Source of the DNA: Promethearchaeota archaeon
GTDB taxonomy: Archaea > Asgardarchaeota > Heimdallarchaeia > Hodarchaeales > Hodarchaeaceae
DNA length: 64,000 nt
Assembly (NCBI GenBank): GCA_048938105.1
Contig: JBHLMN010000014.1
Span: 32,001-96,000, forward strand
Reading direction: 5' to 3'
This document shows positions 4,768 through 59,408 of the stretch, one piece after another. The position numbers were made by a program, and so were the translations under genes. Each line of letters begins with the position of its first letter. The first letter of the stretch is position 1. The notes under the pieces are model-generated. The model made no database searches, was not told where the DNA came from, and saw only the letters and a list, made by a program, of their open reading frames with translations.

Positions 4768-4907
4768 GGCCGGTGCCGGGAATCGAACCCGGACAGGGTG
4801 GGCCACAACCACCGATTATAGTGAATGAGGCAATTGTAAAAAGACCCCAATCAAGACTACCAGTGAATTATGAGTAAAAAACGACTCATATTTATCCTAC
4901 ACCGGCC
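4768..4907 (-). tRNA. tRNA-His(GUG) with encoded G-1 and two D-arm introns (about 15/16 at 4863-4891; about 25/26 at ~4815-4853)
   Basis: Minus strand: G-GCCGGTG...GGTGG-TTGTGGC-CCACC...CCGGG-TTCGATT-CCCGG-CACCGGC-C; BHB central helices GGAT/ATTC and TAGT/ACTA with paired inner hairpins. Confidence 0.9.
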
Positions 4908-4937
4908 AGATCGTCAAAATGCATTCAATTTCATGTG

Positions 4938-4945
4938 ATATAAAT
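4938..4945 (-). promoter_or_regulatory. Probable TATA box for tRNA-His
   Basis: TTTATATC on the minus strand about 30 nt upstream of G-1. Confidence 0.5.
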
Positions 4946-5040
4946 TACTACCTTTAATGTATCATTATAATATCATGACAATGATTCAATTGATTCATTG
5001 TTTTCCTTTCTTGAATATTGAATCCAAGTGTGGGGAAGAA

Positions 5041-6846
5041 TCAAAAGAATTTTGAATAATTTCTAAGGAATTCAAGGAATCTTTCTTTAAGATAAGTCGT
5101 TTCTCCTACATCTGTATTTCCAATGATCTTTTTAATAAAAATTTCAGAATTAAAGTCCATTTTCCTCCCCTTAAGGGCTTCCTCTCCATGTTTTAAAGAT
5201 TCTTTAACCTTTTGTATTAATGAACTATCTTCAAGTAATTTATTCCGATATTTCCTTAATATCACAGCTGCGATAATATCCCCCCAGCGTTGCATTTCTT
5301 GTTTACTCTTTCCCCAATAGCTTATGATAAGAACATTATTTTTCCTGGATATGTTGGTCAAACCACCAATCGAATAACCTTTTCTTATATATTCCAACTG
5401 TAGTTTTAATATACCTGTACCCCTTTTAACATCAAAATGTCCTATCGTTTTTAAAAAATCTAAGAGATAATCTCGTGCTGAAATACATCCTTTATGACTT
5501 CCAATTTCTCTTATTAACTTATTTTGGATGACCTCTCTTGCCTCCTGTTTTTCCCCAATTCTTCCGATTTCATAAGTTATTATATCAGCTTTTCCTATAA
5601 GATGACTTGATCCTGAAGAGATTCTCCCCCACCTATCTTCTGATATGACTTGTGTGGACAGATTTAATGAATTAACATCATTAAATTCATTAGTCTTTCT
5701 AGTTATTGAGTCTCTAATATTTTTATCTTGAATTAATGCAGCATTAAATCTGTTGAAACTATTGTTTCTGCTTTCATTGTAGAATATGGTTAAATTATCA
5801 CTAATATCTTTAAATTGCGTTTTCTTAGCATTTATCAAGTTATAAGTGATATTAATAGGTTTAGAATAGTTTATTTTAAGTTCTTGTATCTTTCTACAAA
5901 TCATCGTTGCAGGAATTTTCTTCACTTCTTCCCACCAATCAGATCTCGGATTTATCTCCTTTATTAACCATGACCAAAATTTAAACATTAATACTGATTT
6001 ATCACAAACATAGATTTCTGTTTCAAAAGAATTATCAGGTTCAGGGTCTCTTTCAGCATATAATTTTAATACAGACCGATTGCTGTCATATATCTCGAAT
6101 ATCTTCTGTTTTTGTGGAGAATCCTTAGCATGATTTCTGAAACCTGCATCACCCCCTAAATCTTCAACATGCTTCCAAAAAATACCCTCTAATATCTCAT
6201 CCGTTAATTCTTTTGTGATTTTAAGTTTAAATACTGTTTGAAACCAAGTTCTGTATTGTTCTTTTATTTTTAAGGGATAATGATACCCTTTTTTTTCTAA
6301 TTCCTTAATGATTAATATTTTAAGGTGAGGTATGTTATCAATCGAAATTTCTTTAGTAATAATTCTTATGAAAGTAAATTTCTGATTATTTTGTTTAATA
6401 TATTTTCTAAATCGTTCTAATCCATTCTTATTCCAGCTGGAATTTACGTTTAGAATTAAAAATTGCTCTAAGCTCCCATGATATGGATTGAGTATTGTTA
6501 TAGGTATGAAAGGGGTTATTCCTTCTAATTTACCTCTGAAAGTGAGCCAATCTTCATAACAATTGGTTGGAAATTGTTTTTTCGTCATAAATCCTTTCAT
6601 TTTTTCATAAATATCCTCATAGAAACGAAAATAAAATTGGTTGTTCGGTTTATTTATAAGAAAAAGTTGATTTTGGAATCTCTTTTTCAGGCTATCAAAT
6701 CTGATCCATATCTCATCTAAAGAAACTCTATTATTGTCAATTTTAGTATTCCAATATTTAATTATCTGTCTTAAAGTTGCTATGGAGGTTTTATCCTCTA
6801 GTGTTTCATTATAAGGTAATGGATACTGGATACGAATGCGAATCAT
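5041..6846 (-). CDS. Orphan 601-aa basic protein, paralog of 36969-39116, immediately upstream of tRNA-His
   Basis: Long intact ORF; collinear shared motifs (YEDW, SSWNKNG, ALIQD, ISEDRWG, EVIQNKLIREIG, IISYWG). Confidence 0.85.
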   Translation of the reverse strand: MIRIRIQYPLPYNETLEDKTSIATLRQIIKYWNTKIDNNRVSLDEIWIRFDSLKKRFQNQLFLINKPNNQFYFRFYEDIYEKMKGFMTKKQFPTNCYEDWLTFRGKLEGITPFIPITILNPYHGSLEQFLILNVNSSWNKNGLERFRKYIKQNNQKFTFIRIITKEISIDNIPHLKILIIKELEKKGYHYPLKIKEQYRTWFQTVFKLKITKELTDEILEGIFWKHVEDLGGDAGFRNHAKDSPQKQKIFEIYDSNRSVLKLYAERDPEPDNSFETEIYVCDKSVLMFKFWSWLIKEINPRSDWWEEVKKIPATMICRKIQELKINYSKPINITYNLINAKKTQFKDISDNLTIFYNESRNNSFNRFNAALIQDKNIRDSITRKTNEFNDVNSLNLSTQVISEDRWGRISSGSSHLIGKADIITYEIGRIGEKQEAREVIQNKLIREIGSHKGCISARDYLLDFLKTIGHFDVKRGTGILKLQLEYIRKGYSIGGLTNISRKNNVLIISYWGKSKQEMQRWGDIIAAVILRKYRNKLLEDSSLIQKVKESLKHGEEALKGRKMDFNSEIFIKKIIGNTDVGETTYLKERFLEFLRNYSKFF

Positions 6847-7273
6847 GGTTCAACTATGAATTCTTTGCTTTAAATGCCTTTGACACTATATAATCAAAGA
6901 AATTCTTTCCTAAAACTGACCAATTACACTAGATATACTCACACTGAGTGTCATATTGTTTTTCACATTTTGTGATATATAATGTGCTGTTAAAAATTAC
7001 TTATTTTTGTTAAAGAACCTGAAAATATCTTCTGTTTCCACTTTCACCATTTTATTATCATCCCATTATAATATAGGAAAAAATCTGCTTAAATTTTTCC
7101 TACACTAGCCAATATAATTGATAAATTGTTATAGTGGAATTTTTTAGTAGAACTACCATTTGAAACATTTAACAAATTGTGTTAAAATAATGTTGTCAAT
7201 CAAGTATACAAATATTATATTCTAATCTACTTGATAATATAGAGAACGATCTTACAATATTAATAAGGTATCT

Positions 7274-33887: not shown

Positions 33888-34195
33888 CCATCTGAAAATT
33901 CAGATAGATCCTCCGTCAATAGTAAATGACGGGTAATGCGTATTCCTAGACTTTGACCATCTAGGAAATCCGACTTCACCTCGACAATGATAACCAGGCT
34001 TTTTACAGCTAAACCACCAGGCCATACCCTTAGACACTTTTTAAGTATAGCCGATAGAGCATCGATCTGGTGCGGCAATCGAAGGTATCCTGACCTGGTT
34101 ATCGGAGTCAGCATTTCTACTCACTAAGTCTGGTGAACTTGAACTTCCTTTTTTTGTGATATAGAAGTTCCATCTAGAAGGATGGGGTAGTTCAC
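33888..34195 (-). ncRNA. omegaRNA (HEARO-like) scaffold of IscB; guide would be the flank at ~34196-34215
   Basis: Begins GTGAACTACCCC...GTTCACCAGAC, contains CATTGTCGAG and several hairpins directly upstream of iscB. Confidence 0.85.
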
Positions 34196-36670: not shown

Positions 36671-36708
36671 GCGCTGATAGTCTAGTCTGGTAGGACTCCA
36701 GCTTCATT
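36671..36708 (+). tRNA. 5' half (nt 1-37) of a split / giant-intron tRNA with a Gly-type body
   Basis: GCGCTGA-TA-GTCT-AGTCTGGTA-GGAC-T-CCAGC-TTCATT; CCAGC is complementary to GCTGG at 39400, not to the adjacent tRNA. Confidence 0.8.
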
Positions 36709-36827
36709 AAAACTTACATAAAAAATTATTGAATGAGTCTCAATAATATGATTTGGACATGATGAGATAAAAAATACTATTAAATTGAAAAATCAAACAA
36801 AATAACACATACTTAATGAGCTTTAAT

Positions 36828-36901
36828 GCGCTGATAATCTAGTTTGGTTAGGATACTTGCCTCCCAAGCAAGCGACCCGGGTTCAAATCCCGGTCGGCGC
36901 A
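36828..36901 (+). tRNA. tRNA-Gly(CCC), intronless, nested between the two halves
   Basis: GCGCTGA/TCGGCGC-A acceptor, CTTGC-CTCCCAA-GCAAG, CCGGG-TTCAAAT-CCCGG. Confidence 0.96.
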
Positions 36902-36902
36902 C

Positions 36903-39116: not shown

Positions 39117-39398
39117 AATAAAGAATTCTCTTCCATCTTTTTTAAAACTATTATTCCCCTAATTACAAGTTATAAAATCTTTAATTCCTCTGTATTCGCC
39201 ATAATCTTAATGTTTTTTGATAATATTCCCTAGAGTGATGAGATATGGATTTTTTCAGAGCTTTATCATTTCACTTCATACTTTTGTCTTACTTTTATCT
39301 TCTTTTATTTCACTTAATTCTCTACTCTTAATTCTAGGACAAAAGGAGTTGTTATATTCATATCAAGATATATAAAACGATTCTAAGAACTTTGAAAT

Positions 39399-39462
39399 TG
39401 CTGGTGACCCGGGTTCAAAAACCATCCACTTTAGAGGATTGCTGGAAATCCCGGTCGGCGCA
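39399..39462 (+). tRNA. 3' half (nt 38-73) of the split tRNA, with a 29-nt intron at 59/60 (39420-39448)
   Basis: T-GCTGG-TGAC-CCGGG-TTCAAA[intron]T-CCCGG-TCGGCGC-A; BHB central helix TTCA/TGGA. Confidence 0.82.
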
Positions 39463-59088: not shown

Positions 59089-59166
59089 GGATCCGTGGCT
59101 TAGCCAGGATAGAGCGGCGGCCTTCTAAGTCGCAGGTCGGGGGTTCAAATCCCCTCGGATCCGCCA
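59089..59166 (+). tRNA. tRNA-Arg(UCU), intronless, CCA encoded
   Basis: GGATCCG/CGGATCC-G-CCA; GCGGC-CTTCTAA-GTCGC. Confidence 0.96.
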
Positions 59167-59185
59167 TATCTGCTTTATTGGAAAT

Positions 59186-59289
59186 GGACTCGTGGCTTAG
59201 CTTGGATAGAGCATCTGCCTCCTATTTCTAAATCTATATAAGTTGAAAGAGATAGCAGAGGGTCGGGGGTTCAAATCCCCCCGAGTCCG
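59186..59289 (+). tRNA. tRNA-Arg(CCU) with canonical 37/38 intron (59225-59253)
   Basis: TCTGC-CTCCTA[29 nt]A-GCAGA; relaxed BHB CTCC/AGAG. Confidence 0.92.
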
Positions 59290-59305
59290 TTTGGAATCGT
59301 TTCAT

Positions 59306-59408
59306 GGGCCCTTGGCTTAGCTTGGATAGAGCGCTTGCCTCCGGAGTAAAAGATTGGTTTCCCAAATATTCTCTACAGAGGTCGTGAGTTCGAATCTCAC
59401 AGGGCCCG
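59306..59408 (+). tRNA. tRNA-Arg(CCG) with non-canonical intron at 41/42 (59349-59376)
   Basis: CTTGC-CTCCGGA-GTA[28 nt]AG; BHB central helix GGAG/CTCT with two 3-nt bulges. Confidence 0.9.

Follow-up and report, generated by a model that had tools for sequence, protein, structure and literature searches.

An apparent split tRNA in a Hodarchaeal genome: a tRNA-Gly(CCC) gene that appears to have been broken by a cassette carrying a replacement tRNA

Free-standing homing endonucleases occur near tRNA genes, SegB of phage T4 being an example, and I-Ssp6803I is a PD-(D/E)xK homing endonuclease of a tRNA-fMet intron. In the described split tRNAs, the halves pair through a complementary joining region and encode tRNAs that the cell needs (PMC3218864). 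The tRNA-Asp(GUC) of Aeropyrum and Thermosphaera was split independently at the same position in these two non-sister species, for which a virus or mobile element was blamed (Chan, Cozen & Lowe 2011, PMC3218864). The viruses and aloposons of Heimdallarchaea insert themselves at tRNA genes by means of integrases or giant proteins, without destroying the target (PMC8813620); Heimdallarchaeum HeimV1 adjoins tRNA-Gly(CCC), and tRNA sites likewise harbour aloposons (Wu et al. 2022, PMC8813620). Here we analysed a 64,000-nt stretch of a Hodarchaeal genome (contig JBHLMN010000014.1, positions 32,001 to 96,000; from here on, the window) in which two tRNA halves are separated by 2697 nt of DNA with an intact tRNA-Gly(CCC) gene and one long open reading frame (ORF). 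A preliminary description had read the halves as a possible split tRNA with a glycine body and a CAU anticodon. We found that they are very probably the remnants of a broken tRNA-Gly gene, and not a new or split tRNA, with CAU as a mere sequence of the junction; a tRNA-targeting cassette with a replacement tRNA, of a kind previously undescribed, appears to be the cause of the break.

The genome that contains the window, G000 (5.85 Mb, 35% G+C, 65 contigs, an estimated 99% complete with an estimated 7% contamination), was compared with relatives from its Heimdall/Hod-type genus of Asgard archaea, which carry the other labels of this form, and the locus is flanked by CofE, which encodes the F420 ligase, and by Urm1. 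In G007, the 5' and 3' portions are continuous as CCAGC CTCCCAA GCTGG; the T-loop insert is the same, and Urm1 follows 29 nt downstream. An uninterrupted tRNA-Gly(CCC) gene with the loop CTCCCAA, directly upstream of Urm1, is present in eight relatives in all (G007, G009, G011, G014, G012, G020, G018 and G006), and 8/8 of these genes carry an intron at 59/60, the hairpin of which varies in sequence and keeps its pairing. In the orthologue of G018 (locus L034, contig C53), introns occupy three places (D loop, 37/38 and 59/60), which implies that within the genus this single gene has both gained and lost introns. A BLAST comparison of the window with G007 is collinear to 36705 and resumes at 39400; we placed the breakpoints of collinearity at 36702/36703 and 39399/39400, and the 2697 nt in between sit exactly where the seven loop bases had been. 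On the left, the 5' remnant is identical to the G007 gene at 32/32 positions, as is the upstream flank, and on the right the exon bases of the 3' remnant are identical too, with a shared downstream flank that runs into Urm1. The insert is common to the window, G003 and the G008-type contigs, and is not found in the eight other genomes of the genus. An artefact of assembly or consensus, that is a chimeric contig or a wrong anticodon, might come to mind in an assembly of so many contigs with such a contamination estimate, but the same architecture, in diverged sequence, recurs in the independent assemblies of G003 and G008 and in an ENA metagenome contig, and we regard this explanation as scarcely credible. 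Since the relatives have an uninterrupted CCC gene at the same locus, the glycine body is inherited and CAU is inserted DNA: the apparent loop is composed of the first six bases of the insert and its last base, and differs from CTCCCAA at 5/7 positions. Judged from these genomes, the ancestral state is a single ordinary tRNA-Gly(CCC) gene with a 59/60 intron, and in all likelihood no functional tRNA with a CAU anticodon would be produced from the halves.

Much of what had suggested a split tRNA can be read directly from the sequence. The 5' portion, with the acceptor strand GCGCTGA and the D arm, reaches CCAGC (36698-36702) and is followed by TTCATTAAAAC; the bases directly after CCAGC are TTCA (36703-36706) and TTA. 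The 3' portion is preceded by CTTTGAAATT; the partner strand reads TGAA (39393-39396), ATT and then GCTGG (39400-39404), with which the 3' portion starts, and the acceptor strand TCGGCGC plus A stands at its end. With TTCA/TGAA as the helix and TTA and ATT as the bulges, the standard rule for bulge-helix-bulge (BHB) motifs, a cut after base 2 of each 3-nt bulge, gives an exon 1 of 36671-36708 and an exon 2 that begins at T39399; the predicted product joins CCAGCUUCAUU to UGCUGG and has the loop UU-CAU-UU. Once the T-loop intron is also removed, ARAGORN folds the joined exons into a 76-nt cloverleaf, which it names tRNA-Met(cat), and the acceptor strand is the same as that of the neighbouring tRNA-Gly(CCC). 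The cut, the shared acceptor stem and the partner strand matching the odd loop were thus described correctly, although the match supports a splice site less than was implied. Beyond the bulges the outer helix has only two A-U pairs, which makes a BHB of 4 + 2 bp; in random pairs from this window, a 4-bp Watson-Crick match in one fixed register arises by chance at 0.55%, or 2.3% if G-U pairs are allowed; and a cofold of the junction only reaches -10.6 kcal/mol, with the anticodon stem contributing most.

A functional split or giant-intron tRNA of this species, whose transcribed halves would be paired by way of the acceptor stem, the anticodon stem and the 4-bp helix, then cut and ligated by the splicing machinery into a glycine body with CAU, with or without editing, would be in keeping with the exact BHB register, with the full cloverleaf and with 0/73 exon changes relative to a functional orthologue on the long G000 branch; its loop, UUCAUUU, would however have U37 where a purine is expected, and U38 as well, and the ancestral CCC anticodon is simply gone. 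In the T-loop BHB of G000 both the bulges and the central helix are still intact, yet the hairpin of this intron has decayed. The 3' half is preceded, at a distance of 22-32 nt, by a TATA-like block, as a transcribed half might have it, but G003 is without a 3' half, the stem is mismatched in G008, and the junction bases are not conserved: the bases of the central helix differ in both of these other carriers, G003 has ATTTCTGG instead of TTCATTA at the left junction, and at the right junction G008 has TGGAACTGTCCA at the equivalent of 39393-39399, a region that G003 lacks. Described split tRNAs join through extended complementarity (PMC3218864), whereas here the outer helix has 2 bp and no extended complementary trailer or leader linking the halves was found at the junction. 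Taken with the presence of every glycine isoacceptor elsewhere in G000, these observations make a functional split tRNA very improbable. The locus does share with the split tRNAs of Nanoarchaeum equitans, with the tri-split tRNA-Gly of Caldivirga and with the tRNA-Asp of Aeropyrum and Thermosphaera the co-oriented pieces a few kb apart, the full cloverleaf, the break in the anticodon loop and relatives that reveal a late split of a once-continuous gene. Unlike in these systems, the anticodon has been lost, extended leader/trailer complementarity is missing, the carriers do not conserve the two pieces together, the tRNA species in question is encoded intact next door, and the splitting agent is still in place. 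The nearest parallel is the tRNA-Asp of Aeropyrum and Thermosphaera, where the presumed element is gone, while here an element is present.

A nested processing step, through a fold-back of the 5' trailer on itself (36703-36766), had also been proposed, and found no support: compared with shuffled sequence the fold has z = -0.22, with 77/200 shuffles folding equally well, and it is not present in G003. We likewise rejected a trailer hairpin with a possible C/D box, ATGATGA (36758-36764), as its fold is no better than that of shuffles and G003 does not keep the motif. At its other end, the cassette closes with TTTGAAATT before GCTGG, a sequence similar to the one with which T-loop introns end, CTGAAAAT before CCCGG.

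For the odd loop, the preliminary description had offered four explanations: editing or replacement of the anticodon loop after splicing, a third RNA piece encoded elsewhere, a non-ribosomal glycine-donor tRNA, and a pseudo-tRNA. Only the last is supported, by the uninterrupted gene in the relatives; the other three are not. The missing isoacceptor that editing might have supplied does not exist, since the genes for Gly GCC (C46:11565-11637), UCC (C46:21512-21604) and CCC (in the window, on the cassette) are all intact in G000, and such a complete set is half of what the description itself had named as speaking against its reading. As to a third piece, we searched the genome for CCAGC, loop and GCTGG and for the stem with an NCC anticodon, and the only match in a tRNA-like context is the UCC gene, which has a 37/38 intron and a 5' half nearly identical to the 5' remnant. 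An inventory of CAU tRNAs by a stem-loop regular expression gave no matches, because introns interrupt such genes, and was discarded; it carries no claim on the completeness of Met or Ile2 tRNAs. ARAGORN and the Rfam tRNA model each find only about 35 of the tRNAs to be expected in G000, where many genes have 1-3 introns (37/38, D loop, 59/60). Partial tRNA matches lie, for example, at C11:90950-91004, C11:81858-81919 and C18:99845-99890, and other broken or split genes may exist. An ARAGORN call on C52, a tRNA-Gly(ccc) with a 2136-nt intron, proved to be coding-like sequence and not a tRNA.

Decay of the remnants is evident in the other carriers. G003 has lost the entire 3' remnant, and its 5' remnant has an altered last stem base and the change A14C, at a base that is universal in tRNAs. 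In G008, and in an ENA contig of the same type, the 3' remnant is kept, but GCTGG has become CATGG and CCGGG has become TCGGG. In G000, four changes in a single strand, with no compensation in the other, weaken the helix of the T-loop intron (-11.7 vs -17.0 kcal/mol). Six changes in this intron are specific to G000; five fall in its 5' arm, four of them consecutively, and this clustering looks like a single multi-base event and not like independent substitutions. The tRNA-Gly(CCC) of the cassette, on the other hand, is identical between G000 and G003 at 74/74 positions within a spacer that is only about 50-60% identical, and the G008-type copy has one change, U5 to C; its anticodon stem is CTTGC/GCAAG where the resident gene has CCAGC/GCTGG, and the D arm differs too. 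Conservation of this tRNA in a half-conserved spacer, together with the decay of the halves in carriers, indicates that the working CCC gene is that of the cassette. Two A/T-rich blocks accompany it. The block AGATAAAAAATACTA is kept between G000 and G003 inside poorly conserved spacer and is also present in the G008-type contig L155; the block ATATCAAGATATATAAAAC is conserved in G003 and G008, and in G003, which has lost the 3' remnant, it therefore immediately precedes Urm1. These blocks may be the promoters of the cassette tRNA and of Urm1, respectively, and Urm1 may have lost the upstream tRNA promoter through the insertion. The features of the locus are collected in Table 1.

Table 1. Features of the interrupted tRNA-Gly(CCC) locus in the window, and loci with paralogues at the tRNA-Ser site
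Feature	Position	Strand	Remarks
5' remnant of resident tRNA-Gly(CCC)	36671..36702	+	tRNA positions 1-31: acceptor strand, D arm, anticodon-stem 5' strand
Inserted cassette, 2697 nt, replacing the 7-nt anticodon loop CTCCCAA	36703..39399	n/a	BLAST vs G007
Left junction TTCATTA	36703..36709	+	source of the apparent 32-37 loop bases and of the 5' bulge; read directly
A/T-rich block AGATAAAAAATACTA	36765..36779	+	candidate TATA-type promoter of the cassette tRNA; conserved in 3/3 cassette copies
Cassette tRNA-Gly(CCC), intact, intron-less	36828..36902	+	ARAGORN; Rfam tRNA model 65.6 bits
715-aa orphan ORF P0001	36969..39116	-	candidate PD-(D/E)xK-type nuclease domain at about residues 470-640
A/T-rich block ATATCAAGATATATAAAAC, cassette right end	39360..39378	+	candidate TATA-type promoter for the 3' remnant and Urm1
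Right junction TGAA + ATT	39393..39399	+	partner of TTCA, plus 3' bulge; read directly
3' remnant of resident gene	39400..39462	+	anticodon-stem 3' strand, variable region, T arm, acceptor 3' strand
Ancestral 59/60 T-loop intron, 29 nt, inside the 3' remnant	39420-39448	+	interrupts the T arm
tRNA-Ser-site loci	L018 (G010:C12), L019 (G011:C3), L020 (G019:C122), L141 (G002:C80)		

The history of the cassette differs from that of its hosts. In a tree of the flanking genes Urm1 and OTCase, G000, G003 and the insert-free G007 form a clade (support 100/99), with the carrier G008 outside, and an approximately unbiased (AU) test rejected the monophyly of the carriers G000, G003 and G008 (p = 0.00026). 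The tree of the ORF, rooted with paralogues, is (G003,(G000,G008-type)) with support 90/89, in conflict with the host tree; the carriers at this site are three species that form no clade. The ORF family was found in 10/19 genomes of the genus and in 0/280 other Asgard genomes sampled, and only 33 relatives were found among 1.8 billion representative proteins. On these sequence comparisons, mobility of the insert is reasonably supported, and recent repeated entry into the same site would explain the pristine remnants of G000, the distribution over a non-clade and the conflict of the trees without a function for the halves. The main alternative is a single old insertion, that is one ancient and non-mobile rearrangement inherited vertically, followed by allele replacement in G007, where homologous recombination would have restored the gene, with the ORF as an ordinary lineage-specific gene. 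Such a history gains some room from the near-trichotomy of G000, G003 and G007 (inner node 63/26), and no recombinase family or terminal repeats were found that would contradict it; but it leaves G008 outside the very clade that holds the insert-free G007, and the ORF tree joins G000 with the G008-type copy. We consider it improbable, all the more in view of the paralogues, which are polymorphic insertions at two other tRNA genes with duplicated tRNA 5' ends.

One of these sites lies between tRNA-Leu(CAG) and tRNA-Ser(CGA), where G002, G010, G011 and G019 have a paralogue; a duplicate of 16-27 nt of the tRNA-Ser 5' end stands on the far side of the paralogue, beside the stop codon of the ORF. 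In G000 the same site is empty (C18:3-245), with tRNA-Leu and tRNA-Ser 19 nt apart. The other is in the window, where a second member of the family (601 aa, 5041-6846, minus strand) adjoins a multi-intron tRNA (4768-4906, minus strand; Rfam 29.2 bits) that ARAGORN missed, and a degenerate 15/18 copy of the first 18 bases of this tRNA is found near 7085-7102. By its sequence, the region 4768-7102 looks like a further insertion of the same kind of element. A much longer relative, P0013 (3124 aa, on the ENA metagenome contig L154), resembles P0001 in its N-terminal part (residues 65-762) and comes after another long ORF, cut by the contig end. The arrangement recalls the giant genes that aloposons have in tandem, but we detected no tRNA on L154.

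Such sites also recall a classical element of the integrase type, or the remnant of a provirus, with the tRNA gene as its attachment (att) site. Integrative elements of archaea and bacteria usually have a tRNA gene as their attachment site (Williams 2002, as cited in PMC8813620; PMC3218864), Heimdallarchaeal viruses and aloposons use tRNA genes including tRNA-Gly(CCC) (PMC8813620), and 16-18 nt direct repeats of a tRNA 5' end flank the paralogues, both at the tRNA-Ser site and at 4768-7102 in the window. The sole ORF of the cassette, however, gave no match to an integrase or transposase family, nor did we find such a fold for it, and at the tRNA-Gly site no att-type direct repeat was found at the junctions; a whole second tRNA is carried, the resident gene is not rebuilt and seven target bases are lost. 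With tRNA-site integrative elements (Williams 2002; She et al. 2002; HeimV1) the cassette has in common the tRNA target, the archaeal group, tRNA fragments as footprints and a patchy occupancy. It is unlike them in that no integrase was detected, in its 2.7 kb with one ORF, in the absence of an att duplication at this site, and in that a complete cargo tRNA makes up for the destroyed target, where those elements rebuild theirs from a partial copy. An origin as an integrase-type element is therefore, in our judgement, highly unlikely.

The ORF, P0001, gave no match against Pfam, NCBIfam or PADLOC, and nine longer homologues gave none against Pfam; Foldseek and VIA, with the model of the whole protein, returned nothing decisive, and the ESM Atlas gave no usable match. 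The ratio of nonsynonymous to synonymous divergence relative to the G003 copy (dN/dS 0.23) points to purifying selection. Conserved in 19-26 aligned homologues are FWxE (E474), P535-D536 and E..Q550-x-K552, of which the latter two lie, in the models, on adjacent strands of one beta-hairpin, and this layout of motifs is that of PD-(D/E)xK nucleases. A model of residues 365-650 (confidence score pLDDT, the predicted local distance difference test, 83.6) has weak structural matches, nearly all of them to the restriction-endonuclease fold. The best is the Hjc resolvase, with Z 4.2 over 92 aligned residues and a root-mean-square deviation of 4.2, which is below the confident level; tRNA splicing endonucleases reach Z 3.3-3.8, I-Ssp6803I (2ost) reaches Z 3.3, and NgoMIV, TnsA, Vsr, McrC, EcoRV and Cas4 are among the other weak matches. 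A tyrosine or serine recombinase was found neither by Pfam and NCBIfam nor among the fold matches, though a very divergent enzyme is possible. We take these models as a hint, not an assignment, that P0001 may be a PD-(D/E)xK nuclease.

The ancestral tRNA-Gly(CCC) gene of the CofE-Urm1 locus has very probably been broken by the 2697-nt cassette, which replaced its 7-nt anticodon loop, and the intron-less tRNA-Gly(CCC) of the cassette has very probably taken over CCC-type decoding. For the cause of the break we hypothesise the following. The cassette would be a selfish, site-specific element that has invaded this one tRNA gene in several species. Its drive would probably come from the 715-aa ORF, as a DNA nuclease that acts on the resident type of gene. 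The cassette tRNA, with its variant D arm and anticodon stem, would escape cutting and render the disruption harmless, and its differences from the resident gene would fit immunity to a nuclease that recognises the latter. The disruption, the replacement tRNA, the decay in other carriers, the patchy distribution and the conflict of the element tree with the host tree are shown by the sequences; nuclease activity, homing and the promoter roles we infer from sequences and structural models. The specific version of this account, a homing-type 'tRNA gene replacement' cassette whose nuclease cuts the resident anticodon stem-loop so that the element enters the break, with relatives that act likewise at tRNA-Ser(CGA) and one other tRNA, is put forward as a possibility, tentatively. 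Free-standing homing endonucleases near tRNA genes, such as SegB of T4, are the closest mechanistic analogue of this proposed cassette. As with the genes of SegB and I-Ssp6803I, one nuclease-like ORF lies beside or inside a tRNA gene, its presence varies at one site, its phylogeny conflicts with that of the host, and the carrier allele has no intact target. Unlike I-Ssp6803I, the ORF is antisense to the tRNA and not inside a self-splicing intron, and the structural match to that enzyme has a Z of only 3.3; and unlike in homing endonuclease genes, both the nuclease activity and its target are here predictions. We know of no homing element that carries a replacement copy of the gene that it disrupts.

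Several observations weigh against the reading of the halves as remnants left by a recently entering, nuclease-driven cassette. At the junction the BHB geometry fits exactly, with 4 bp, two 3-nt bulges and the right register, for which the chance is about 0.5-2%; conservation does not support it, and we regard it as a mild coincidence. The carriers differ in their junction sequences, and a comparison of the three kinds of site revealed neither terminal repeats nor ends that the elements share. In the non-coding parts of the cassette identity is about 70%, and in host intergenic sequence about 62%, a similar divergence that a single old insertion would also produce. Because of this similarity inside and outside the cassette, the case for independent acquisition rests on the trees and not on levels of divergence, and we dropped the synonymous divergence of the ORF (dS 1.07, vs 0.44-0.71 in the flanks) as a proof of it, as the non-coding divergence is without the same excess. 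Co-conversion of the flanks from a G008-like donor was not seen either: the remnants and the downstream spacer of G000 match G007, not G008. The remnants are also remarkably well kept, 73/73 of their exon bases being equal to the functional G007 gene in spite of the long G000 branch, along which 26% of the adjacent intergenic bases (0.26/site) and 12-18% of third codon positions have changed. For the 0/32 G000-specific changes of the 5' remnant, the probability is about 0.02 at 0.12/site, the lowest rate at third codon positions, and <1e-4 at the intergenic 0.26. Such pristine remnants imply either selection on them or a recent insertion, and a single old insertion would need a strong and unexplained conservation. 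We infer recent entry as the cause from the conflict of the trees, in which the support on the side of the ORF is only 90/89. As to the nuclease, Foldseek had no match at E <= 0.001, and VIA had Z <= 4.2, under the confidence range of the tool itself.

Two further features of the window were noted. A full-length HEARO RNA (33969-34195, minus strand; 108.8 bits), the guide RNA that goes with HNH/IscB genes of the IS200/IS605 type, lies some 2.5 kb upstream of the broken tRNA; we found no connection between it and the cassette. Further along, at 59089-59408, there is a cluster of three tRNAs, the second and third of which (59186-59289 and 59306-59408) have introns of about 30 nt each, and ARAGORN detects only the first tRNA.

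A glycine-bodied tRNA with a Met-type anticodon would, if true, have pointed to recoding, to editing or to split tRNAs of a new class, and this is the reading that we set aside. The locus is a warning for annotation, in that 'split tRNAs' that are compatible with a BHB require comparative support. To our knowledge, no recently split archaeal tRNA gene has been known with the mobile agent still at the break, and a cassette that still occupies the loop of the very gene it split provides a model, open to testing, of how tRNA genes are disrupted. It also suggests a possible protective role for tRNA introns and sequence variants, and it provides a first candidate function for a protein family confined to one Heimdall-group genus of Asgard archaea. 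If the homing-cassette reading is true, the locus would show at work the kind of mobile agent to which the origin of split tRNA genes has long been ascribed.

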